A DNA stretch of 34,334 nucleotides from contig JBBIHX010000016.1 in NCBI GenBank assembly GCA_037446815.1, forward strand, positions 1 to 34,334, given 5' to 3'. Position 1 is the first letter of the stretch, and each line of letters starts with the position of its first letter. The notes beneath the pieces were generated by a model, which had not been told where the DNA came from, did no database searches, and was given only the letters and a program-made list of their open reading frames with translations. The position numbers were made by a program, and so were the translations under genes. Shown in pieces: positions 6,071-30,273 of this stretch. Source of the DNA: Caldilineae bacterium (GTDB lineage: Bacteria; Chloroflexota; Anaerolineae; DTLA01).

Positions 6071-6097
6071 GTAGGGCAAATTGCCAATTTGCCCTAC
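6071..6097. repeat. GTAG-type REP-like palindrome
   Basis: gtagggcaaattgccaatttgccctac; copy at 21168-21194; related gtagggcgaccggccggtcgccctac at 17380-17405. Confidence 0.75.
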
Positions 6098-7437
6098 TTT
6101 GCCCCAGCCGCGTTATCCGTGGACACGTCTTCGCGGTTGCCATCCCTCGCCAGCGCGCGCGGCTCCACCAGGCGCGCCGTCAGCCCCAGCCCCGGCAGCA
6201 GCCCCACCGCCGTGAGGCCGAACAGCGGCTCATAGGACACCGCGCTCGCCAATGCTCCGCCCAGCAGCGGGAACGCGATGATGATGCCCGTCAAGGTATT
6301 GCTCAGCCCAACGTAAATCGGGCGCTTGCTCTCCGGCGAGATTTCCAGCAGGTAGTTCATGTGCCCCAGCATGAACGAACTGTTCAGCGCGCCCAGCGAG
6401 GCGAACAGCAAGAGGTACGCGCCCATGAACCACGGCGTGTCCCCGGGGAGGAACAGGCCCGCCACCGTGGCGATGGCCGGCGCGATAACCGCGATGAATG
6501 CCTCTATGCGGGTCGTCAGCCGCCCGCCGAACCGCTCCAGAAGGTACCCGCCCAGGATGGAGTACAGGAACCCGCCCACGATTTGCGCCGAAAGGAAAAG
6601 CCCGATGGTCGCAGTGGGCACGCCTTTCTGATTGATGGCATACACCGCGTAGAAGGGCGACGAAAGGGACGTCAGCCCCAGGATGAGTCGGATGGCCGAG
6701 ATGGTGCGGAAGTTTGCGTCGCCGCGCCAGATGCTCCCCAATTCGCGCACGTAGTCGCGGACGGTGAGCGCGGTGTCGTCCACCTGGCACGGCGTCTCGC
6801 GTATGCTTGCGCAGAAGGAGAGCGACAGGGCCAGGAAGAACGCCGCCGCCAGGAACAGCGCCGCGTAATTGGCCGGATAGGCAAACGGGCCGCGGTCGCC
6901 CAGGATGTACCCAACGATGCCGCCGACGCCGGTTGTCAACAAGGCGCTGACGACCTGCGTTGTTCCGATGAATCGCCCCCGCCGTCTGGGCGGAATGGCT
7001 TTGCTGAACAGGTCAAACCAGGCCACGCTGGCGATGCCGTCGCACATGTTGAAGATGCCGAAGCCGGCCAGGATGATGGCCGCGGCCAACACGGGTTGGG
7101 ATTGGGCGAGCAGGAACAACGCCAACGCGCCCAGGATGAACATGGGCCGCCCGACGAGCGACGGGAGTATGATGCCCGGCTTCTTGCAGGGCAGGCGGTT
7201 GATGCGCCCCGCCGCAAGCAACTGGGGCAGCAGCCATCCCCCGGAGGCCAGCGTGCTCACCAGGCCCACCGCCACCGGCGAATGGGTCAGGTGGTCTATC
7301 AGCGTGGGCAGGACCGTGCTGACGCTGACGAACGACATCGCCAGGCCGAAACTGACCCAGTCGCCCATGAGCGCCAGGGCATTCCATTGGTAGTTGGGGG
7401 GCAAGGTTGTCGCGGTATCGGATGCGTTGTCGACCAT
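6094..7437 (-). CDS. MFS transporter
   Basis: About 12 hydrophobic segments, DLFSKAIPPRRRGRF loop, GGYLLERFGGR motif A-like; ATG 7437 after ggggag. Confidence 0.88.
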   Translation of the reverse strand: MVDNASDTATTLPPNYQWNALALMGDWVSFGLAMSFVSVSTVLPTLIDHLTHSPVAVGLVSTLASGGWLLPQLLAAGRINRLPCKKPGIILPSLVGRPMFILGALALFLLAQSQPVLAAAIILAGFGIFNMCDGIASVAWFDLFSKAIPPRRRGRFIGTTQVVSALLTTGVGGIVGYILGDRGPFAYPANYAALFLAAAFFLALSLSFCASIRETPCQVDDTALTVRDYVRELGSIWRGDANFRTISAIRLILGLTSLSSPFYAVYAINQKGVPTATIGLFLSAQIVGGFLYSILGGYLLERFGGRLTTRIEAFIAVIAPAIATVAGLFLPGDTPWFMGAYLLLFASLGALNSSFMLGHMNYLLEISPESKRPIYVGLSNTLTGIIIAFPLLGGALASAVSYEPLFGLTAVGLLPGLGLTARLVEPRALARDGNREDVSTDNAAGAK

Positions 7438-7456
7438 GGTATTCGTCTCCCCCGTG

Positions 7457-7485
7457 ATTATATGCCTGCGGCCCCCGCTCTCCAA
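7457..7485 (-). promoter_or_regulatory. sigma70-type promoter for MFS gene
   Basis: TTGGAG(7485-7480)-17 bp-TATAAT(7462-7457). Confidence 0.6.
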
Positions 7486-7500
7486 ACGTTCACAGGACGC

Positions 7501-7650
7501 GACGCGGCTTCATCTTGTGTCGGTGAAGCGCATGGACACTCTCCTTGTGTGTCGTTGCGAGCGAAGCGAAGCAACCTCACGCCCCAGAGATTGCTTCGGG
7601 CGCTCCGCGCCCTCGCAATGACAAATACCAACAGACTTTGGAACCGAATC
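7501..7650 (+). mobile_element. MITE-like element type 1
   Basis: 150 bp; ends gacgcggcttcatcttgtgtcgg / ccaacagactttggaaccgaatc; flanks caggacgc and cagaaagc (6/8 match). Confidence 0.8.
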
Positions 7651-7680
7651 CAGAAAGCGGCGCGGCTCCGAAGAGGCGTG

Positions 7681-7719
7681 AAAACGAAACGCCGGAGGCC
7701 CCATTGCCCCCGGCGTTTC
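7681..7719 (-). terminator. rho-independent terminator after carbamate kinase
   Basis: Stem gaaacgccgg...ccggcgtttc followed by gtttt on minus strand. Confidence 0.65.
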
Positions 7720-7741: not shown

Positions 7742-8686
7742 CTACGGGACGATGAGCGTCCCCGTCTCGCCGCGCAGGGCGCGCTCAATATTCTCCGGGT
7801 TGGTGATGATGGCCTGCTTCCCGCCCGCCTCCAGGAACCAGATGATGGCCTGGATCTTGGGGAGCATGGAGCCCTTTGCGAAGTGCCCCTCGGCCATGTA
7901 CTGCTTGGCCTCGGCAACGGTCATGCGGTCTATGGCCTTCTGGTCCGGCTTGCCGTAGTTCAGGTACACCTTCTCCACGGCGGTGGAGATGAGGAACAGG
8001 TCGGCCTTGATGCTTCGGGCCAACAGCGACGAGGCGTAGTCCTTGTCAATCACGGCGGCGATGCCTTCCAGTTCGCCCCGTTCGTTCTCCACGACGGGGA
8101 TGCCGCCGCCGCCCACGGTGATCACCACAAACCCCTTGCGAATCAACTCCTCTACCGCGTCCTGCTCCTTGACGACCTTCGGAAGGGGTGAAGCGACAAC
8201 CCGGCGCCAGCCGCGTCCGGCGTCCTCTACCACGTGCCAGCCCTCCTGGTCGCGGCGGCGAAGGGCCTCCTCTTCGGTCATGAACGAGCCGATGGGCTTG
8301 GTTGGGTTCTGGAAGGCGGGGTCGTTGCGATCCACGATGACCTGGGTAACGACGGTTACCGCCTGCTTCTTGATGCCGCGGCGCAGGAATTCGTTCTGCA
8401 GGTTCTGCTGGAGCATGTAGCCGATGGCGCCCTGGGTGTCGGCCCCGCATACGTCCAGCGGCACCTCGTGCAGTTCGTGGCGCGCCAGTTCGCTGCGGCG
8501 CAGGATGAACCCCACCTGCGGGCCGTTGCCGTGGCCGATGGCCACATCCCAGCCCTGCTCAATCATGCCGGCGATGTGATGGCAGGTCTCCTTCGCGGCC
8601 TGGTACTGGTCGGGCACGGTCTGGTGGTTCTTGTCCTTGATGAGCGAGTTGCCGCCAATGGCAACCACTGCGACCTTCTTCGTCAT
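7742..8686 (-). CDS. arcC: carbamate kinase
   Basis: VVAIGGNSL, HGNGPQVG, PTKPIG, GRGWRRVVASP, GGGGIPV, AVIDKD, GSMLPK. Confidence 0.96.
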   Translation of the reverse strand: MTKKVAVVAIGGNSLIKDKNHQTVPDQYQAAKETCHHIAGMIEQGWDVAIGHGNGPQVGFILRRSELARHELHEVPLDVCGADTQGAIGYMLQQNLQNEFLRRGIKKQAVTVVTQVIVDRNDPAFQNPTKPIGSFMTEEEALRRRDQEGWHVVEDAGRGWRRVVASPLPKVVKEQDAVEELIRKGFVVITVGGGGIPVVENERGELEGIAAVIDKDYASSLLARSIKADLFLISTAVEKVYLNYGKPDQKAIDRMTVAEAKQYMAEGHFAKGSMLPKIQAIIWFLEAGGKQAIITNPENIERALRGETGTLIVP

Positions 8687-8720
8687 GGGGATGCACTCCT
8701 TTGTATGATGTGTCTATGGC

Positions 8721-9764
8721 CTACAGAAGTCCCGACATCGTCAGCGCCATGACGGCCTTCTGCACGTGCAGGCGGTTCTCGGCGACGTCGTAGATGCACG
8801 AGCGCGGGCCGCTGGCGACCTCGTCGGTAACCTCATGCCCGCGGTCAATGGGCATCGGATGGGTGAAGATGGCGTTGTCGGTCAGGCGCATCTTCTCGGC
8901 GTCGCAAATCCACTCGGTCAGTTTCAGCGCCCGCTCAATCTCCTGCTGCTTGAGGAACTCGCCGTCCTTGTATGCTTCGGGGCTCATCCAGTGGCGCGAG
9001 TACACCACATGGGCGCCCACATACCCCTCGCGCACGTCGGTGGTCTCCTCAAACGACGTGCCGTTGGCGCGGCAGTTGGCCTTGGTCCACTCAATGACCT
9101 GCGGGTCCAGCGGGTACCCCTCAGGGTGCGCCAGGGTTACGTGCATCCCAAAGCGGGAGCCGATGAGCAGCGCCTCCTGCACCGAGCACCAGGAGCGGGC
9201 CAGCGCGCCATGTCCCCAGGTTACGAGCAGTTTCTTGCCCTTCAGCACGCTCATGTCCAGCCCTTGCCCAGGCCCCTTGCCGTACCACTCGGCCCAGCCC
9301 ATGATGTCGGCCAGGCCCTGGAATGGGTGGTACTTGTCGTGAGCCATGGAGAAGACAGGCATCCTGGCCCAGTAGGCGTACTCGCGGATGAGGTCATCGC
9401 CCTCGCCATACGCGCCGATCTTGTCCTCCAGGATGCGGATGCCCAAGCCCGCGGCGTAGCGATCCATCACCTTGGCGGCATCCTCCACGGTCTCGCCCGC
9501 GGTGGTCGCCGTCTTCAGGCGCATGGCCTTCGGTTCCAGGAACTGCGCGTGCCCGCCTAGTTCGGTGGCTGCGCATTCAAAACTCTGGCGCGTGCGCACC
9601 GACGGGTTGTAGAAGAACATGAAGAATGTCTTGTTCTGCAGGAGACTGGTGAAGCGGGGATTGAAGCGGTCGCGCTTCATCTTCGCAGCCAGGTCCAGCA
9701 CCGCATCCAGTTCATCCTTGCTCCATTCCTGCGTCGTAATCAGGTCCTTGCCGTAGAGATCCAT
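8721..9764 (-). CDS. transcarbamylase (OTCase/knotted family), divergent, substrate unknown
   Basis: NPSVRT, HPFQGLAD, AENRLHVQKA; atypical TWGHGALARSW, YSRHW and THPMP (not HCLP). Confidence 0.85.
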   Translation of the reverse strand: MDLYGKDLITTQEWSKDELDAVLDLAAKMKRDRFNPRFTSLLQNKTFFMFFYNPSVRTRQSFECAATELGGHAQFLEPKAMRLKTATTAGETVEDAAKVMDRYAAGLGIRILEDKIGAYGEGDDLIREYAYWARMPVFSMAHDKYHPFQGLADIMGWAEWYGKGPGQGLDMSVLKGKKLLVTWGHGALARSWCSVQEALLIGSRFGMHVTLAHPEGYPLDPQVIEWTKANCRANGTSFEETTDVREGYVGAHVVYSRHWMSPEAYKDGEFLKQQEIERALKLTEWICDAEKMRLTDNAIFTHPMPIDRGHEVTDEVASGPRSCIYDVAENRLHVQKAVMALTMSGLL

Positions 9765-9799
9765 CTTCTGCCTCCCAACAGGAAAGATTCAAGAATCCA

Positions 9800-9875
9800 C
9801 TCACCGCAGAGGGCGTGGAACACGCAGAGGGAGAAAAGCGTTCCTCCCTCTGTGGCCTGCGCGCTCTGCGGTGAG
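9800..9875. repeat. palindromic repeat family F between the transcarbamylase genes
   Basis: ctcaccgcagag 9800-9811 inverted at 9864-9875. Confidence 0.65.
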
Positions 9876-9897
9876 CCTACTGTAGGTTGTGTCCGTC

Positions 9898-10968
9898 CTA
9901 GGCCATGACCAGGCTCATGACGGCTTTCTGGACGTGCAGGCGGTTCTCGGCCTCATCGTACGCAGCCGATAGCCACGGGCGCTCCTTGGAACGGGTCGTG
10001 TTGTCAATGACCTCGTCGGTTACCTCGTACCCGCGGTCGCAGGGCAGGCAGTGCAGGTAGATGCTCTCGGGATCGGTGAGACGCATCTTCTCGGCGTCGC
10101 AAATCCAGTCCTTGTGGCTGTCAAAGATGGCCTGGGTCTTCTTGGGATCGTCCTCGCCGACCGGGGGCTTGAAGATGGGCACGGCGCACCAGGCCTTGGG
10201 ATAGACGACGTGGGCGCCCTTGAACGCCTCGCGCATGTCGTGGCTGATCTTGAACGAGCCGCCGTTGTGCCGCGCGTTGGCCTCGCACGCCGCCAGGACT
10301 TCGGGATCCAGTTCCATGCCCTCGGGGTGCGCCAGCGTAACGTTCATGCCCATCATGGTAGCGGCGATGATGGCGCTCTGGGGCACGGCGCGGGGCTTGT
10401 GAATGCTGGGCGAGTAGGCCCAACTCATGACGAAGTTGACGCCCTTGAACGTGCCGAACTTCTCCTTGACGGTGAGGATGTCGGCCAGGGCCTGGAATGG
10501 ATGGTACTTGTCGTCCTCCATGTTGAGCACGGGGATGTCGGCCCAGTAGGCGAAGTTGCGGATCAACTCGTTGGCGCCGCCGTACACCCAGTCCACCGGA
10601 TCGCCATAGCAGCGGATGGCGATGGCGTCGCCCATGCGAGCCAGCACGCGCGCCACGTCGGAGACGCGCTCGGTGGAGTAGGCCACTTCCTTGCCGGGGA
10701 GCGCCGGGGTGTAAATCTTGCCCGGGTCCAGGTAGTGGGCATGGCCGCCCAGTTGAGTCATGCCGGCCTCAAATGAGTTGCGGGTGCGCAGGCTCTGGTT
10801 GTAGAAGATCATGAACAGCGTGCGGGCGCGAAGCAGGTGGTCGTGCGGTTCGCGCATGGCGTAGCGCCGCTTTAGGTCCAGCGCCACGTCCAGGATGGTC
10901 TCAACCTCTTCGCGCGTCCAGTCCAACAGGGTGATGAAATCCTTGCCACGAAACGTTTCGGTCTTCAT
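9898..10968 (-). CDS. knotted transcarbamylase, YgeW/AOTCase-like
   Basis: NQSLRT, HPFQALAD, SWAYSPSIHKPRAVPQS Pro-rich loop, YPKAW, HCLP; ATG 10968 best spaced from aaggag. Confidence 0.87.
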   Translation of the reverse strand: MKTETFRGKDFITLLDWTREEVETILDVALDLKRRYAMREPHDHLLRARTLFMIFYNQSLRTRNSFEAGMTQLGGHAHYLDPGKIYTPALPGKEVAYSTERVSDVARVLARMGDAIAIRCYGDPVDWVYGGANELIRNFAYWADIPVLNMEDDKYHPFQALADILTVKEKFGTFKGVNFVMSWAYSPSIHKPRAVPQSAIIAATMMGMNVTLAHPEGMELDPEVLAACEANARHNGGSFKISHDMREAFKGAHVVYPKAWCAVPIFKPPVGEDDPKKTQAIFDSHKDWICDAEKMRLTDPESIYLHCLPCDRGYEVTDEVIDNTTRSKERPWLSAAYDEAENRLHVQKAVMSLVMA

Positions 10969-11001
10969 AAGCATCTCCTTTTGTAAAGTTGTTTTCGTTT
11001 C

Positions 11002-11742
11002 CTAACGCAAGGGAGCAATGCGGCGAATCAAATGGAACTTGAATACACTGGGCAAGAAGTAGTTCTGCGAGTAGCCGACAATCTGATTGTCCTGGGTGTA
11101 ACTGACCTCCTCTAGCAACAGGAGCACGGTGCTCGGCTTGACGCGCAACTTGGCGGCGACGGAGGAGTCGGCGCGGGTTGCGATGATGTTGGTCCAGGCG
11201 AAGGCAAGGGGCACCTGGCGCTCCAGCAGGTAGTCCAACACCGAACCCTTGAACGAGGCGCGCAGTGTGGCGATGTCCGTAACCCATGCGGGCAGCACGT
11301 CGTACATGTAGGCGGCGATGACGCCGTTGGTAACCTTGGTGCGGCCTACGGTGATGACCGTTTCGCCTGGGGCGATTCCCAGGCGCGAGGCGATTTCGCG
11401 CGGGGCCGGTTCCTCGCGGATTTCCAAATCTTCGGTCGTGCAGACGAGGCCCATGCGTCGGGCAAGGGTGTCCAGGCTCTCCAGTTGCTCCAGCCCGCTG
11501 TCTATGACATGGGTTGGCGCGTTGATGAAGGTCCCCAACCCTCGGCGGCGGGTGATGAGGCCCTTGTCCTCAAAGGCGCGCAGGGCCTCGCGGAGCGTGG
11601 CGCGGGAGATGCCCAGCCGCTGGGCCAGTTCCGGCTCCGGCGGCAACCGATCGCCGACACGGTAGGTCCCGTCCTGGATGAGACGATTGAGCGCCTCCTC
11701 GGCCTGGAGGTACAGGGGACGGGAGTCGTATTTCACTCGCAT
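11002..11742 (-). CDS. GntR family (HutC/UTRA) transcriptional regulator
   Basis: PLYLQ, GDRLPPEPELAQRLGISRATLREAL, RRRGLGTFI; C-terminal UTRA-like domain. Confidence 0.93.
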   Translation of the reverse strand: MRVKYDSRPLYLQAEEALNRLIQDGTYRVGDRLPPEPELAQRLGISRATLREALRAFEDKGLITRRRGLGTFINAPTHVIDSGLEQLESLDTLARRMGLVCTTEDLEIREEPAPREIASRLGIAPGETVITVGRTKVTNGVIAAYMYDVLPAWVTDIATLRASFKGSVLDYLLERQVPLAFAWTNIIATRADSSVAAKLRVKPSTVLLLLEEVSYTQDNQIVGYSQNYFLPSVFKFHLIRRIAPLR

Positions 11743-11754
11743 CCGGACACCCCT

Positions 11755-11801
11755 TTGTCTGATGTCTGACATATTATACACGCGCGCCGCGGGGCCGTCA
11801 A
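11755..11801 (-). promoter_or_regulatory. sigma70 promoter with candidate GntR operator
   Basis: TTGACG(11801-11796)-17 bp-TATAAT(11778-11773), followed by atgtcagacatcagacaa (palindrome atgtc-a-gacat; tcagaca twice). Confidence 0.75.
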
Positions 11802-11817
11802 ATCGCCAGCGGTTGCG

Positions 11818-11991
11818 GAATCGGTTCCAAGGGCTGTTGGCATCTACCGTCATTCTGAGCGGCGAAGCCGCGAAGAATCTCACCCCTCACCCCAACCCTC
11901 TCCCGAAGGGCGAGGGCGTGTCGCCTTCGGCTCAGCATGACAGAGAGGGAGGCGGCGCGCGGGACAGACCAACACAGTTTGGAACCGAATC
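11818..11991. mobile_element. MITE-like element type 2 (same TIRs, different cargo)
   Basis: Ends gaatcggttccaagggctgttgg / ccaacacagtttggaaccgaatc; cargo gtcattctgagc...gctcagcatgac with nested ccctctccc..gggcgaggg hairpin. Confidence 0.72.
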
Positions 11992-11999
11992 CAGCCGCG

Positions 12000-12150
12000 G
12001 AATCGGTTCCAAAGTCTGTTGGTAACCGTCATTGCGAGGGCGAGGAGCAGCCGAAGCAATTTCCGGGACGTGCGATTGCTTCGCGTCGCTCGCAATGACA
12101 TACAAGTGGAGTGGGCATGCGGTTCGCCAACACAAGATGAAGCACCGAAC
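12000..12150 (-). mobile_element. MITE-like element type 1, reverse orientation, diverged
   Basis: gaatcggttccaaagtctgttgg...gtcattgcgag...ctcgcaatgac...ccaacacaagatgaa; 8 bp from previous element; right end degenerate. Confidence 0.72.
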
Positions 12151-13380: not shown

Positions 13381-16300
13381 TCACTCCGCGCCGGTAACGG
13401 GCAGGCGCGCGGGGGCCGCCAGCACATCGGCGTCGGCGCGCACCAGCAGGCGGTAGCCGCCGACGTAGGGCGCGCGCTGGGCGTACTGGCTGACCACGCC
13501 CACGATTCGGAGCACGTCTCCGCGCGCGATCTTGGGCCGTTGGGCCTGGCCGCCCTCGCGAAAGTACACCCGCGCCGGCCCCGACCCGTCGTCCAGCCAT
13601 AGGGCGCGACTCTCCACGTCCATCACGCGCCCCACCAGCGCGACAAGCCGTCCTTCCCATGCCTCGCCCATGTCGCCGGTGCGGATGCCGACCGGAGCGA
13701 TGGCAATGTCGGCATCAAAGACCTGCAAATCGCCCGGGACGGACACATAGAGTTGCAGTTCGCCATGGTAGTCGCGCAGGCGGCCCGTGGCCCGCAGCCA
13801 CTGACCTTCCACCAGCGGCGGATACTCGCCCTTGGCAAGGTACACCGCCAACCCCACGTTGCGGTCCTGGAGGAACACCAGCCGCTCGCTCACCGTTCCC
13901 GGCGGCGCGGTCAGTTGCCCCTGCGTGATGAGCCGTGTCCCCGGCGGCTGGATTCGCGCCAGGGGCAGGTCCATGAAGGGCGGGCCAGGCTGCGGCGTGG
14001 GCGGGGGAAGGGCGCGATTCGCCTCGCCCGGCGTAACCGCGCAGTCCCGCGTCCACTCGCCCACCCCATCGGGGATGCGGCCAAATGAGCGGTCGTACCC
14101 GGGTGTCTTCGTGTACACGAAGCGATCGGCCGGCGTGCCGTGGGGCCTCAGCAGTTGCACCGTGTCGCCGCCGTTGTTCAGCGCGATTCCGGTCTGGCGG
14201 CCGAAGAGCACCAGGTAGCCGCCCGGCGGGACTTCGCTCCCTGGCGGCAGGGTGTACGGCTTGCTGCCGCCATCGGGCGCGTCGTCCAGCACCCAGCCGG
14301 CGAGATTCACCGCGCGCGCCTCCAGATTCCGCAGTTCTATCCATTCATCGTGTCCGGAATCCAACTGCCCATCCCCGTCCCAATCCGTGGCATGGGGCGC
14401 GGGCAGGATTTCGTTCAGAACCACCCGCGCCAGAAGGTCGGGAGTTGAAGTGCCCGTGGGTGTCGGGCTGGGCGTGCGGGTCGCCGTGCGGGTGTAGGTG
14501 GCCGTCCGCGTGGGAGTGGCCGTGCGGGTGNNNNNNNNNNNNNNNNNNNNNNNNNNNNNNNNNNNNNNNNNNNNNNNNNNNNNNNNNNNNNNNNNNNNNN
14601 NNNNNNNNNNNNNNNNNNNNNNNNNNNNNNGCGGGTCGCCGTGCGGGTGTAGGTGGCCGTCCGCGTGGGAGTGGCCGTGCGGGTGTAGGTGGCCGTCCGC
14701 GTGGGAGTGGCCGTGCGGGTGGGGCTGGGTGTGCGCGTCGGAGTCGGCGATCCCGGCGCGTTGGCGTGTCCCGGCGATGGCGGGTAGGCGGCCGTCCACC
14801 CGCCCGACTCCGTGCGGCTCCACGAGCGGTCGTAGCCCATGGGCGGATAGGCGGTCTCATCTACCAGGGCGCCATCGGGCCCCAACAAGCGCACGCTATC
14901 CCCGTCGTTGTTCAGTGCCAGGCCGGTATCGCGCTTGAACAGGACGAGATAGCCGCCCGGCTCCACCCACAGGTCGGCGGGCGCACGCCACGGCTTGCTG
15001 CCTCCATCTGCCGCGTCGTCCAACTCCCAGCCGGCCAGGTTGATCGCGACCGGGCCGCAGTTGAACACCTCTACCCACTCGTCGTCGCTGGAGGGAGTGC
15101 CATCGGAATCCCAATCCACGTAACGGGGCGCGGGGAGAATCTCGTTCAGTCGCACCGTGCGGGGATACGGGGTGCTGGTGGGCGTAACGCTTGGCGTCGG
15201 GGTCGGCGCAGGCGTCTCCGTCGGCCAGGGCGCCGGAGGCTCGGTCGCTGTGAGCGTGGCGGTGGGCGTGTCTGTGGGCGCCGAAGTGTCCGTCGGCGTC
15301 GGCGTGGGCGAAGGCGTCTCCGTCGGCGAAGGCGTGCGCGTCGGCGTCGGCGTGCACGTAACCGGCAGGTTCGGGCCTCCGGGTGAAGGCGCGTATTCCC
15401 ACGTCCAGGCGCCATCGGCCTGCTTGCTGTATGCGCGGTCGTAGTCGGCCTTGCCGTAGGTTACCTTCTCCACCAGGACGTTATCCGGGCGCAGGAAATG
15501 CACTTCGTCGCCGTCGTTGTTCAGCGCGATGCCCGACTGCTTCTGGTAGATGACGAGATACCCCCTGCCCCAGATGAACGTATAGGGCGGGATGCGATAC
15601 TCCTTGGAGCCGCCATCCCGTCGGTCGTCCAACTTCCACCCGCCCACGTCCACCGGATACCACGCAGAGTTGTAGATTTCAATGTACTCGTCGTCTGGCG
15701 AAGGCGTGCCGTCTCCGTCGTAATCCACCCAACGCGGGGCGGGCATGATTTCGCTCAAGTGCAGGGTGGTGGGATAGGGTGTCTTTGTGAGCGTCGGCGT
15801 GGCCGTGAGCGTCGCCGTCCTGGTGGGAGTAGGCGTGCGCGTCGGCGTGGGCGTCCTTGTCGGCGAGGGCGTGCGGGTGAGGGTGGCGGTTTTGGTGTCC
15901 GTTGGCGTCCTGGTGAACGTCGGCGTGCGCGTAGACGTTGGAGAGGGAATGTCGGTGCTCGTGGCGGTGGGCGTGGCGGTGGCGGGGAGATTGGGGCCGC
16001 CAGGCGAGGGCGGATAAAGGAGCGTCCACACGCCCGCGCCATCCGCCGTGCGGCTGTACGATGCGTCGGGCAGCGATGTGTAGTACGTGTGCGCGTCGGC
16101 CACCGTGCCGTCGGGCCGCAGCAGCCGCACCGTGTCGCCCGCGTTGTCCAGGTTGATGCCCGTCGCCCTGCGGAAGAACAGGAGAAAACCGCCGGGCTGA
16201 ATCCACGTGCCCGCGGGGATGACGTAAGGCGCGGAGCCGGCATCCCGGATGTCGTCCAGCATCCAGCCGCCGAGGTCAACCGGCTGATCGCTTGCGCAGA

Positions 16301-16481
16301 AGAGTTCTATCCACTCGTCCAGGTGGTTTGCAACGCCATCGCCGTCCCAGTCCACGGCGACCGGCGCGGGGAGATACTCGTTGAGGACGACGGGCGGCGC
16401 TTGGGCGAACGCGAAGGACCGCAAGAGCGTATTCGCCAGGAACACGGAGACGACAGGCAACCCCCACGCCCAGCGGCGCAT
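13381..16481 (-). CDS. secreted protein with four lamin-tail domains, Thr/Pro linkers and C-terminal OB-fold-like region (one gene across scaffold gap)
   Basis: Signal peptide; four L(N/S)E(I/Y)xPAP...DxDxDG...DE(W/Y)(I/V)E...LxNxGD repeats; removing 100 N plus the 55-bp duplicated overlap gives 2946 bp in frame (981 aa). Confidence 0.82.
14476..14685. other. scaffold gap with 55-bp duplicated flanks inside 36-bp tandem repeat
   Basis: 14476-14530 is identical to 14631-14685. Confidence 0.9.
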
Positions 16482-18443: not shown

Positions 18444-18593
18444 GAGTCGGTCTCATCTTGTGTTGGTGAACCGTAGGCGCACTCTCCTCGTGTGTCGTTG
18501 CGAGCGAAGCGAAGCAACCCCACGTCCCAGGGATTGCTTCGGGCGCTCCGCGCCCTCGCAATGACAAATACCAACAGACTTTGGAACCGAATC
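18444..18593 (+). mobile_element. MITE-like element type 1 with perfect 8-bp target site duplication
   Basis: 150 bp; gagtgggt at 18436-18443 and 18594-18601. Confidence 0.85.
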
Positions 18594-18601
18594 GAGTGGG
18601 T

Positions 18602-21470: not shown

Positions 21471-21477
21471 TGCGGTT

Positions 21478-21627
21478 GACTCGGTTCCAAAGTCTGTTGG
21501 TAGCCGTCATTGCGAGGGCACGCAGTGCCCGAAGCAGTCTCCGGGGCGTGGGATTGCTTCGCTCCGCTCGCAATGACACACGAGGACAGCGTGCATGCGG
21601 TTCACCAACGCAAGATGAAACCGACTC
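21478..21627 (-). mobile_element. MITE-like element type 1, reverse orientation
   Basis: 150 bp; gactcggttccaaagtctgttgg / ccaacgcaagatgaaaccgactc; no clear TSD. Confidence 0.8.
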
Positions 21628-23815: not shown

Positions 23816-25213
23816 TTGGACGCAAATCGGGAAAAGAACGCGGCCGCCGCCAGTTCGGTGGTGGCCGCCGTGGGACTCACAACGTTCAAGATTGTGGTCG
23901 GCCTGATGACCGGCAGCCTGGGCATCCTGTCCGAGGCGGCGCATTCTGGACTGGACTTGGTGGCGGCCCTCGTTACATGGTTTGCCGTGAGGGTCTCCGA
24001 CCGCCCCGCCGATTCCCGGCACCATTACGGGCATGGGAAGGTGGAGAACCTCTCCGCCCTGGTGGAAACTCTGCTCCTTCTCCTCACCTGCGCCTGGATC
24101 GTGTACGAAGCGATTCGCCGCATCTTCTTTGCCGAGGTGCACGTGGATGCCAACCTCTGGGCGTTTCTGGTGATGGGGGTCTCCATCGTCATAGACTTCA
24201 CCCGGTCTCGGGTCCTCATGCGGGCGGCGGAGAAGCATAACAGCCAGGCGCTGGAGGCCGACGCGCTCCATTTCCAGACGGACATCTGGAGTTCCTCGGT
24301 GGTCATTGTGGGGCTGGCGCTGACGTGGGGCGAGCAGCGGCTCGGCTGGCCGTCGTGGTTGGCCAAGTCGGACGCCGTGGCCGCGCTGGGCGTGGCGTTC
24401 ATCGTCATCGGCGTGAGCGTGCGCCTGGGTCGGCGGACCATCGCCGCGTTGCTGGACACGGCGCCGCCGGGGTTGCGCGAAACCGTCCGAGACACGGTCG
24501 CTTCGGTGCCGGGCGTGCTCAGCGTGAACCAGGTGCGGGTGCGCCAGGGCGGGCCCTACACGTTCGCCGACGTGGACATCGCCGTGGGGCGCGAGATGTC
24601 CTTCAGCCAGGCGCACGATGTGGCAACGGCGGTGGAGCGCCGCCTGCGCCAACTCCTGCCGCAGGCGGATGTAGTCGTCCACGTGGGGCCCGCGACCCAT
24701 CGCGGCGAGACCGACGACCAGAAGGTGCGCGCGGTGGCAGCGGCGCATGGCCTTGCGGCTCATTCCATCCACGTGCACCACATTCGCGGCCAGGTGTACC
24801 TGGAGTTTCACCTGGAAGTGCCCGACGATCTGGACTTGGCGCGGGCGCACGCCCTCGTCTCGGAGGTGGAATCGGCCCTGCGGGGCGAGTTCCCGGGCCT
24901 TGTGGATGTCATCACCCACATAGAGCCGGCCTCCCGCGAGCGGGTGGTGGCCCCCATCTCGCCCGAAGAGGTCGCGCGGGTGGAGGCAGAGGTGCGGCGC
25001 ATTGCCGACGAGCAGTGCGGCGATGGCCATTGGCATCGCCTCATGGTGCGCGACGAGTCGGGCATGTTGTCCATCTCCTTGCACTGCCAGATGGCGGGCA
25101 GCGCCTCGGTCCAGGCCGCGCACGACCTCTGCGAGCAATTGGAAGCGGCCGTGCGCCAGACGATTCCCAACGTGGGGCAGGTGGTCATCCACGTGGAACC
25201 CCTGGACGATTGA
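23816..25213 (+). CDS. cation diffusion facilitator (FieF-like) with three C-terminal ZT_dimer-like domains
   Basis: HSGLD and HFQTD metal sites, HHYGHGKVE; three AH...VH(V/I)xP repeats; TTG start. Confidence 0.9.
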   Translation: MDANREKNAAAASSVVAAVGLTTFKIVVGLMTGSLGILSEAAHSGLDLVAALVTWFAVRVSDRPADSRHHYGHGKVENLSALVETLLLLLTCAWIVYEAIRRIFFAEVHVDANLWAFLVMGVSIVIDFTRSRVLMRAAEKHNSQALEADALHFQTDIWSSSVVIVGLALTWGEQRLGWPSWLAKSDAVAALGVAFIVIGVSVRLGRRTIAALLDTAPPGLRETVRDTVASVPGVLSVNQVRVRQGGPYTFADVDIAVGREMSFSQAHDVATAVERRLRQLLPQADVVVHVGPATHRGETDDQKVRAVAAAHGLAAHSIHVHHIRGQVYLEFHLEVPDDLDLARAHALVSEVESALRGEFPGLVDVITHIEPASRERVVAPISPEEVARVEAEVRRIADEQCGDGHWHRLMVRDESGMLSISLHCQMAGSASVQAAHDLCEQLEAAVRQTIPNVGQVVIHVEPLDD

Positions 25214-27031: not shown

Positions 27032-27241
27032 GCGCCTGCCGGTGGCCCTACTGCGAGGGCATGACGAAGTCGCGTCCGACGATGATNNNNNNNNNNNNNN
27101 NNNNNNNNNNNNNNNNNNNNNNNNNNNNNNNNNNNNNNNNNNNNNNNNNNNNNNNNNNNNNNNNNNNNNNNNNNNNNNNNNNNNNNGCGCCTGCCGGTGG
27201 CCCTACTGCGAGGGCATGACGAAGTCGCGTCCGACGATGAT
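27032..27241. other. scaffold gap with 55-bp duplicated flanks
   Basis: 27032-27086 is identical to 27187-27241. Confidence 0.9.
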
Positions 27242-30107: not shown

Positions 30108-30257
30108 GACTCGGTTCCATCTTGTGTTGGTGAAACGCCTGGACACTCTCCTCGTGTGTCGTTGCGAGCGAAGCGAAGCAACCTCACGCCCCGGCGATTG
30201 CTTCGGGCGCTGCGCGCCCTCGCAATGACAAATACCAACAGACTTTGGAACCAAGTC
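30108..30257 (+). mobile_element. MITE-like element type 1
   Basis: 150 bp; gactcggttccatcttgtgttgg / ccaacagactttggaaccaagtc; flanks ccactgcc and cccctgcc (7/8 match). Confidence 0.85.
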
Positions 30258-30273
30258 CCCCTGCCGCGCCGTT

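Follow-up and report, generated by a model that had tools for sequence, protein, structure and literature searches.

In a Caldilineae bacterium (Chloroflexota; assembly GCA_037446815.1, contig JBBIHX010000016.1), four adjacent genes code for a GntR-type regulator, two different transcarbamylases that we call TC1 and TC2, and a carbamate kinase (CK). The stretch of DNA analysed, 34,334 nt in all, is hereafter called the window. Based on sequence comparisons, we consider it probable that these genes form a catabolic module that yields ATP from ureido compounds stemming from the breakdown of N-heterocycles. A more specific reading, which we regard as evenly balanced, is that the operon is substrate-inducible and acts at the end of the reductive urate pathway, where it would cleave ureido groups of 2,3-diureidopropionate (DUPA) with formation of ATP. 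The trio of TC1, TC2 and CK recurs in other bacteria and archaea, and genes of purine degradation accompany it in some of them.

The initial annotation of this stretch, made by reading the sequence alone, had described a gntR-TCase1-TCase2-arcC operon with one promoter and a terminator. Our analyses recovered all of these parts, as follows.

11773..11801, minus strand: sigma-70-type promoter, TTGACG-17-TATAAT, 11 of 12 positions matching
11002..11742, minus strand: GntR+UTRA regulator of the HutC subfamily; start at ATG 11742 likely, the ORF being open up to GTG 11883
9898..10974, minus strand: TC1, short YgeW-like transcarbamylase, 358 aa (Pfam, NCBIfam, trees, alignment)
8721..9764, minus strand: TC2, transcarbamylase of a distinct family, 347 aa (Pfam, NCBIfam, trees, alignment)
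7742..8686, minus strand: CK, carbamate kinase of the arcC type, 314 aa (TIGR00746, NF009007)
7680..7719, minus strand: terminator-like hairpin with a 14-bp stem and a 6-nt loop, followed by GUUUUC

The four ORFs are co-directional, with spacings of 27, 133 and 34 nt, and Pfam and NCBIfam agree with the identities given to them. The regulator probably starts at ATG 11742 because an AAAGGGG ribosome-binding site precedes this codon and because of the position of the promoter. Its domains are a GntR winged helix (PF00392, 70.8 bits) and a UTRA domain (PF07702, 86.8 bits), and no NCBIfam equivalog reaches its cutoff. Over the region scanned for promoters, four promoter-like sites were returned where 1.0 would be expected. 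Directly adjoining the -10 box is a perfect 5+1+5 palindrome, ATGTCAGACAT (11772-11762), which we regard as a candidate operator. CK exceeds the equivalog cutoffs of both TIGR00746 (394.8 bits; cutoff 358.25) and NF009007 (429.5 bits; cutoff 266). The hairpin begins 22 nt past the stop codon of CK, with arms at 7686-7699 and 7706-7719. Its folding energy is -33.9 kcal/mol (z = -3.7), and one of 200 shuffled sequences folds as well. It came from sequence reading and folding, although the consensus terminator scan listed none after CK. As the initial annotation had also noted, no deiminase is adjacent: neither an arginine nor an agmatine deiminase domain was found among the 35 window ORFs scanned, and the window scan yielded no arg genes.

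Family placement of the two transcarbamylases

TC1 and TC2 both carry the OTCace_N and OTCace domains (Pfam) and are 43% identical to each other. The motifs that had been singled out at first reading were all found in place by string search: WAYSPS (position 185), KPRAVPQ (193), YPKAW (258) and HCLP (308) in TC1, and WGHGALARSW (183), YSRHW (255) and HPMP (302) in TC2. The SMG motif, which had been declared missing from both enzymes, was indeed not found in either of them by the same search.

The carbamoyl-phosphate motifs of TC1 are SLRTR, HPFQ and HCLP, and they are accompanied by YPKAW and by a proline-rich loop, WAYSPSIHKPRAVPQ, with three or more prolines. In the loop and YPKAW, the initial annotation had seen features of the knotted YgeW-type transcarbamylases, whose sequence signature combines a proline-rich loop with an extended 120s loop, according to the available text of PMC4581275. 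Part of this likeness was confirmed. In the alignment with YgeW, the TC1 loop MSWAYSPSxhKPRAVPQSAI faces MTWAYSPSYGKPLSVPQGII, VVYPKAW faces IVYPKSW, and HCLPcD faces HCLPAD. The residues that TC1 has in common with the substrate-side loops of YgeW are invariant across 27 TC1 sequences. The YgeW motif set S[LT]RT / HP[TMF]Q / H[AVC]LP (listed for YTCase, the YgeW transcarbamylase, in Table 1 of PMC4016543), together with the WAYSPS..KP..VPQ loop, is found in TC1 only, and TC1 groups with the YgeW clade in the trees described below. The likeness has its limits: TC1 scores well below the YgeW family models NF005538 (168.8 bits; cutoff 453) and TIGR03316 (157.2 bits; cutoff 500), and, like TC2, it is devoid of the N-terminal helix, 120s insertion, long 240s insertion and C-terminal extension of YgeW in the alignment. 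Because it fails these models and lacks these insertions, we describe TC1 as a short enzyme similar to YgeW and not as a YgeW itself. Its AlphaFold model shows an ordinary transcarbamylase fold (mean pLDDT 88.3).

TC2 has the motifs SVRTR and HPFQ, the latter being HPCQ in most orthologs, and a proline-free loop, WGHGALARSWCSVQ. The segment that aligns with the proline-rich loop of the knotted enzymes is GHGALARSWCSVQ, without any proline. SVRTR, the proline-free loop, YSRHW and HPMP are invariant or nearly so across 24 orthologs. The combination SVRT / HP[CF]Q / HPMP does not match any row of Table 1 in PMC4016543, and HPMP recalls the HP[LG]P of aspartate transcarbamylases (ATCases). TC2 also scores below both YgeW models, with 118 bits on NF005538 (cutoff 453) and 111.2 bits on TIGR03316 (cutoff 500). 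Its predicted model again has an ordinary transcarbamylase fold, with a mean pLDDT of 75.4 and residues 54-90 below 50. By its motifs and its orthologs, TC2 thus belongs to a separate, highly conserved transcarbamylase family. In both enzymes, all motifs that bind carbamoyl phosphate are retained, and their residues are invariant. Because of this, neither appears to be a pseudoenzyme, and each looks catalytically competent on its own.

The names given to the TC2 orthologs in their sources are ornithine or N-acetylornithine carbamoyltransferase (OTCase or AOTCase). Taken at face value, they would place both enzymes in arginine biosynthesis or in (acetyl)citrulline catabolism, for instance in an arginine-deiminase-type pathway. 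Some similarity scores agree with these names. TC1 just reaches the cutoff of the AOTCase equivalog NF003384 (288.6 bits for a cutoff of 288, hence on the line), and the best solved-structure relatives of the pair are the Xanthomonas AOTCase (214 bits for TC1, 176 for TC2) and the Pyrococcus OTCase. Nevertheless, TC2 remains below the NF003384 cutoff (223.7 bits), and AOTCase-labelled representatives score 315-531 bits on the same comparison. TC1 (229.1 bits) and TC2 (185.3 bits) are both below the cutoff of the OTCase model TIGR00658 (280.85), as they are below that of the putrescine transcarbamylase (PTCase) model in NCBIfam. As for the motifs expected of OTCases alongside TIGR00658, HCLP is found in TC1 only and SMG in neither.

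Structural comparison was of little help in this respect: Foldseek searches of the PDB with the predicted models gave generic AOTCase/OTCase matches only and did not separate YgeW-like from AOTCase-like enzymes. We take Trp77 of the 80s loop to be one of the AOTCase specificity residues. Three more are reported to be Glu92, Asn185 and Lys302 in the X. campestris numbering (PMC4581275, available text). At W77/E92/N185/K302, the alignments read P, T, P and E in TC1, and a gap, G, S and E in TC2, so that all four are replaced in both. The likeness to the Xanthomonas AOTCase (ArgF') is one of fold, with TM scores of ~0.8 for TC1 and 0.73 for TC2 to this best PDB match, of length and, for TC1, of a proline-containing loop. 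In contrast, the enzymes differ by their clades, by the four substrate-specifying residues and by a catabolic genetic context, in which a carbamate kinase, rather than arginine-biosynthesis genes, accompanies them.

A whole-library search with TC1 provided the starting set for the phylogenetic analyses, in the form of its 150 best representatives at 50% identity. The 93 that had at least 300 aa were kept and labelled using NCBIfam, which gave 33 AOTCases, 20 OTCases and 38 sequences that reached no cutoff; the remaining two, partial AOTCase matches, were left out. The FastTree analysis comprised 128 rows, namely 18 of the 33 AOTCases, 12 of the 20 OTCases, all 38 unlabelled sequences, the transcarbamylases of 31 of the 80 related loci described in the next section, and E. 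coli YgeW, ArgI and PyrB. A second tree was computed with IQ-TREE (LG+C20) from 62 of these rows. The alignment used for residue comparisons contained 41 TC1 orthologs, 6 TC1-like sequences (five archaeal and one from Caldiserica), 77 TC2 sequences, 18 AOTCases, and E. coli YgeW and ArgI.

In both trees, TC1 and TC2 are outside the AOTCase clade, which has 100% support, and outside the OTCase rows. The TC1 orthologs form a clade (support 97-98) that joins the YgeW clade, with moderate support for the join (local support of 95 with FastTree, SH-aLRT of 86 with IQ-TREE). The TC2 orthologs form a separate clade (support 99). Forcing TC1 to group with the AOTCases made the tree 45 log-likelihood units worse (p-AU 0.004), for a group that was named after seeing the tree. 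The phylogeny that the initial annotation had called for thus shows no clustering with characterised OTCases or AOTCases, and its doubts about an automatic argF label appear well founded. The argF/AOTCase names, which come from the sources for the TC2 orthologs and would follow from the NF003384 cutoff for TC1, are probably wrong. Finally, the scanned neighbour ORFs of the 80 loci included neither arg genes nor genes for arginine or agmatine deiminases. We hold it to be very improbable that TC1 and TC2 are what these names say.

Conservation and genetic environment of the module

Using a scan of one genome per species, we identified 514 stretches that encode a TC2 relative and fetched the best 80 loci, 66 from bacteria and 14 from Asgard archaea (designated by L numbers). 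These loci were chosen through TC2 and are silent on TC1 genes without TC2. Among Anaerolineae, Chloroflexia, Ca. Hakubella and Asgard archaea, the TC2 orthologs share 75-97% identity, and those of Acidobacteriota are ~70% identical. The bacterial phyla represented include Chloroflexota, Acidobacteriota, Caldisericota, Eisenbacteria and Myxococcota. Among the 66 bacterial loci, 45 have a same-strand TC1 gene, 40 have CK, and 32 have both. The distance between TC1 and TC2 in the 45 is within 300 nt in 30 cases, 301-1000 nt in 10 and larger in 5. Among the 14 Asgard loci, a TC1-like gene is present in 5, an adjacent CK gene in 12, and both in 5. The Asgard TC1-like proteins show 50-53% identity, and their genes are found 1-6 kb upstream with other genes between. 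CK adjoins TC2 in 52 of the 80 loci. A GntR gene is present upstream on the TC2 strand in 10, and L028 has one on the opposite strand. The conservation of the pair, on which the initial annotation had made its proposal depend, is thus established for a good part of the bacterial TC2 loci, in several phyla.

Such proximity raises the question of whether the two proteins work together. TC1 and TC2 might assemble into a mixed trimer, i.e. a single enzyme with its active sites at TC1/TC2 interfaces. Transcarbamylase active sites lie between neighbouring subunits, the two genes are tightly adjacent on the same strand in 30 of the 66 bacterial loci, and the TC1 and TC2 trees agree on the two groupings checked (L030/L059/L072 and the Acidobacteriota loci). 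Nevertheless, each protein keeps a complete, invariant carbamoyl-phosphate-binding set, and TC1 is absent despite at least 1.2 kb of sequence on both sides of TC2 in 14 bacterial and 4 Asgard loci. In archaea, the TC1-like genes are kilobases away. No transcarbamylase catalytic trimer is known to be heteromeric. A heterotrimer is improbable in our view, and TC1 and TC2 would most likely form separate homotrimers.

We next considered the genes that surround the module. All ORFs of the loci were clustered and representatives were scanned, and the E. coli pathway proteins were used as direct queries. The flanks fetched with the loci measured up to 8 kb, and the Pfam scans covered 117 plus-strand and 97 minus-strand neighbour ORFs. 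Twenty of the 80 loci, 11 bacterial and 9 archaeal, were found to carry genes of the reductive urate (2,8-dioxopurine) pathway. Together with the YgeW-like loops of TC1, these genes lend independent support to the link to YgeW and anaerobic purine catabolism made in the initial annotation. YgeY is encoded in L008, L011, L016 and L028 (447.9 bits on NF009555 for the L011 representative; cutoff 321), and SsnA in L043, L057, L060, L064 and L071 (515 bits on NF005540 for the L057 representative; cutoff 444). HyuA-like proteins are found in 13 loci. Ten of them are near-full length and 30-38% identical to E. coli HyuA, and L042, L059 and L060 give partial matches of 124-188 aa with 33-40% identity. 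L071 and L075 encode YgfK, L030 a YgfK/PreT-like fragment, and L071 also an Xdh-like protein. A fused PreT/PreA-type reductase of 926 aa was scored in L064, and L057 and L060 have a weak YgfK tblastn match (27%) at the equivalent position. The Pfam scans of the neighbours added few pathway genes, namely a reductive subunit in L030, a C-terminal piece of YgfK in L071 and subunits of pyruvate:ferredoxin oxidoreductase (PFOR) in L061, where they are encoded between TC1 and TC2. The latter would fit with pyruvate as an end product. Most flanks of the scanned loci harbour unrelated housekeeping genes. A YgfK-like match in L048 proved to be an HdrA-type protein and was left out of the count, and long Acidobacteriota ORFs without Pfam match were wrong-frame ORFs, the real reductase being encoded on the other strand.

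The most complete clusters are those of L071, from Chloroflexia, and of Acidobacteriota. The order in L071 is GntR, a 498-aa pyridoxal phosphate (PLP) enzyme, TC1, TC2, CK, YgfK, an Xdh-like protein and SsnA. In L057 and L064, it is HyuA, SsnA, the reductase, a PLP enzyme, TC1, TC2, CK and a threonine-synthase-like PLP enzyme; L060 follows the same order, with a partial HyuA match at the edge of the locus. No M20 hydrolase was found in the Acidobacteriota clusters L057, L060 and L064. By gene content, L071 and the Acidobacteriota clusters reproduce the E. coli set, with the second transcarbamylase apparently in the place of YgeY. Two PLP enzymes recur in these surroundings. The threonine-synthase-like protein is encoded after CK in 14 loci (e.g. 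L064:10074-11360; 184 bits to solved threonine synthases), and the 498-aa, CysK/CBS-like protein is found in 14 loci as well (e.g. L064:5416-6891). Both travel with the module in place of YgeX, the diaminopropionate ammonia-lyase.

These environments can also be read as those of two different ureido substrates with one CK common to both enzymes. One transcarbamylase would then act on the purine diureido acid, and the other on N-carbamoyl-beta-alanine or N-carbamoyl-beta-aminoisobutyrate, as formed when pyrimidines are degraded reductively, or on hydantoin-derived N-carbamoyl amino acids. Several observations are consistent with this. TC2 is found with CK but without TC1 in the 14 bacterial loci with adequate flanks, and TC2 and CK are also the tighter pair in archaea. 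The locus L011 carries YgeY besides both transcarbamylases. The fused PreT/PreA reductase of Acidobacteriota is of the dihydropyrimidine dehydrogenase (DPD) type, and with a dihydropyrimidinase-like HyuA it equally makes up a set for reductive pyrimidine degradation. A catabolic beta-alanine transcarbamylase was raised as an open possibility in the available text of Shi et al. 2015 (PMC4581275). Conversely, SsnA above its equivalog cutoff, YgeY and the Xdh-like genes indicate purines, and the gene-by-gene correspondence with the E. coli cluster, YgeY excepted, favours a single diureido substrate. Furthermore, the urate pathway of C. difficile uses a PydA-type reductase (PMC12507026, available text), so a DPD-type enzyme is not specific to pyrimidines. 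Two separate substrates are rather unlikely in our estimation.

Other genes recur near the module. A BMP-family ABC transporter is encoded in L004, L007 and L061. In the Asgard loci L036-L056, the CK-TC2 pair is near a conserved block coding for a 285-aa protein of no family match, a DUF123 protein and a transglutaminase-like protein, as well as a HyuA-like amidohydrolase and a 495-aa SsnA/chlorohydrolase-like amidohydrolase. Small genes of the PF05635 family ('23S rRNA-intervening sequence protein') are interspersed between TC1, TC2 and CK in L015, L040, L047 and L075, with two copies each in L015 and L075.

Proposed scheme of ureido cleavage

In the reductive urate pathway, YgeW phosphorolyses one ureido group of DUPA and makes ATP together with YqeA, and YgeY hydrolyses the other group (bioRxiv 10.1101/2025.04.24.650524; PMC12507026; PMC12990295; available texts). 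In their available texts, two studies of the pathway disagree on which ureido group YgeW takes. In Chloroflexota, SsnA clusters with PF00185 neighbours are mentioned in the available text of PMC12507026.

The initial annotation had proposed an ATP-yielding breakdown of a non-citrulline ureido compound. The placement of both enzymes away from OTCases and AOTCases and the recurrence of the pair in other genomes support this view. From the gene contents and the family placements, we infer the direction of catalysis, the identity of the substrate, the ureido group taken by each enzyme and the effector. Each transcarbamylase would run catabolically, R-NH-CO-NH2 + Pi -> R-NH2 + carbamoyl phosphate, and CK would convert carbamoyl phosphate and ADP to ATP, NH3 and CO2, thereby pulling the unfavourable phosphorolysis forward. 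The likeliest substrate would be DUPA, the double-ureido intermediate of the reductive urate/2,8-dioxopurine pathway. TC1 would remove one of its ureido groups, and TC2 the other, by phosphorolysis where E. coli YgeY hydrolyses it. The reactions would leave 2,3-diaminopropionate and raise the yield from one ATP per purine to as many as two. The operon would be substrate-inducible, the GntR/HutC regulator repressing it until a pathway intermediate binds. We place this specific two-step DUPA scheme slightly below the point of balance. The HPMP motif of TC2 might, speculatively, hint at the handling of an N-carbamoyl-alpha-amino group. By extension, TC2 could found a new family that phosphorolyses this group after the action of TC1 as a mini-YgeW, with both ureido groups ending up as carbamoyl phosphate and substrate-level phosphorylation giving two ATP per purine, in fermenters of Chloroflexota, Acidobacteriota and Asgard archaea, and with horizontal spread between bacteria and archaea. 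As a whole, this last proposition is tentative and more doubtful than the scheme itself.

A number of observations weigh against a DUPA module. None of SsnA, HyuA, YgeY, YgfK and Xdh is encoded in the window or in the closest relatives L001-L003, and 60 of the 80 loci have no pathway gene within the fetched flanks. With the E. coli protein as the query, no YgeX ortholog was found in the 80 loci or in the window, and the two recurrent PLP enzymes, which are absent from the window, are of families other than that of YgeX. Next, TC1 is missing from 14 bacterial TC2 loci in spite of adequate flanks. L011, with YgeY, TC1 and TC2, has three ureido-cleaving enzymes for two groups, and L008, L016 and L028 have YgeY and TC2 but no TC1, which misfits a simple swap between YgeY and a transcarbamylase. 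Lastly, a flavin-reductase-like protein (PF01613, ~189 aa) that has no place in the proposed scheme is encoded just upstream of TC2 in 17 of the 80 loci, in 9 of these between TC1 and TC2 (e.g. L026:7014-7580, L011:7275-7829); the window has no such gene. This protein could serve a luciferase-family reductase like the one described for Chloroflexota clusters in the available text of PMC12507026, but no gene for such a reductase was seen in the surveyed loci. Mutual exclusion of TC1 and YgeY was also considered, but with three of the four YgeY loci devoid of TC1 and one harbouring both, the loci are too few, and the idea was dropped.

The closest known system is that of YgeW and YqeA in the reductive urate pathway of E. 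coli and Clostridium. Common features are a catabolic transcarbamylase adjoining a carbamate kinase, the WAYSPS..KP..VPQ loop, YPKxW and HCLPxD of TC1, and the homologs of ssnA, hyuA, ygeY, ygfK and xdh in related loci. Nevertheless, identity to YgeW is only 34% for TC1 and 29% for TC2. Two transcarbamylases are found here, in contrast with one transcarbamylase and the M20 hydrolase YgeY in E. coli, a YgeX ortholog is missing, and the regulator is of the GntR type, unlike the sigma-54 activator YgeV of E. coli. The adjacency to CK is present in the window, whereas the pathway genes are present only in the 20 related loci. The arginine deiminase and agmatine/putrescine transcarbamylase pathways follow the same energetic logic, i.e. 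ureido phosphorolysis coupled to ATP formation by carbamate kinase. The module described here differs from them in having no deiminase, no SMG motif and two transcarbamylases per kinase, and in the tree branches on which these enzymes are found.

Purines can also be degraded oxidatively, and the first hypothesis that we considered was that of an allantoate/ureidoglycine transcarbamylase (UGTCase). More generally, the module might degrade ureido intermediates of the oxidative pathway, namely allantoate, ureidoglycine or oxalurate. Like DUPA, allantoate bears two ureido groups, and a transcarbamylase that phosphorolyses it next to a carbamate kinase is documented in the available text of PMC4016543. 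This enzyme, the ureidoglycine transcarbamylase Rxyl_2847 of Rubrobacter xylanophilus, thus has a purine-catabolic role, a genetic setting and a diureido substrate reminiscent of those proposed here. It is, however, a pseudo-ATCase with STRT/HPTQ/HPLA motifs (PMC4016543, Table 1), on another branch than TC1 and TC2, and it has oxidative-pathway neighbours. TC1 and TC2 differ from it in these motifs, and both obtain much higher scores with OTCase-side models than with ATCase ones. No allantoinase, uricase or glyoxylate-pathway gene was detected among the neighbours scanned for our loci, and the oxamate transcarbamylase of E. coli is the unrelated AllFGH (PMC11326118, available text). The allantoate hypothesis was dropped on motifs and gene context, and we give the oxidative pathway a low probability as the source of the substrate.

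The logic of a catabolic transcarbamylase coupled to carbamate kinase and the reductive urate pathway are both known already. The doubling of the enzyme, the mini-YgeW and the family of TC2 have not been described: no description of a two-transcarbamylase purine module was found in the literature searched, which included the text of PMC12507026. The reductive urate pathway was not elucidated until 2025, and in gut bacteria alone, where one ureido group gives ATP through YgeW/YqeA and the other is hydrolysed, with loss of its energy. If DUPA is indeed the substrate of TC1 and TC2, environmental anaerobes could double the ATP yield of purine fermentation, and this type of fermentation would extend to uncultured Chloroflexota, Acidobacteriota and Asgard archaea. 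Functions would be assigned to two widespread families mislabelled argF/AOTCase, with TC2-like genes in 514 species-representative stretches. As each ureido group would have its own enzyme, the module may also bear on which group is attacked by YgeW.

Other features of the window

The gene downstream of CK codes for a transporter of the major facilitator superfamily (MFS):

6094..7485, minus strand: neighbouring MFS transporter (Pfam/NCBIfam)

It has its own promoter-like site at 7484-7457, and of the related loci only L001 and L002, two near-identical relatives, have it after CK. It is thus probably outside the conserved module.

A dispersed element, GGATTCGGTTCCAAA, is present in eight copies with at most two mismatches, against 0.05 expected by chance (119-133, 7637-7651, 11817-11831, 11978-11992, 11999-12013, 18580-18594, 21477-21491 and 30244-30258). 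The copies bracket the operon on both sides. At 11968-12023, two of them form a 25-nt inverted repeat that is flanked by a second palindrome, GTCATTGCGAG/CTCGCAATGAC. The element resembles dispersed repeats of the REP or MITE kind.

Scaffold gaps are present at 14531-14630 and 27087-27186, each a run of exactly 100 N. The first of them falls within the Pro/Thr-rich repeat region of lamin-tail-domain proteins: the minus strand of 13381-16481 codes for two large secreted-looking proteins with one and three lamin tail domains (PF00932), respectively, and long Pro/Thr-rich linkers, one of them also having an OB-fold domain. Lastly, the plus-strand gene at 23816-25213 codes for a cation-diffusion-facilitator transporter with three ZT_dimer domains in place of the usual one.

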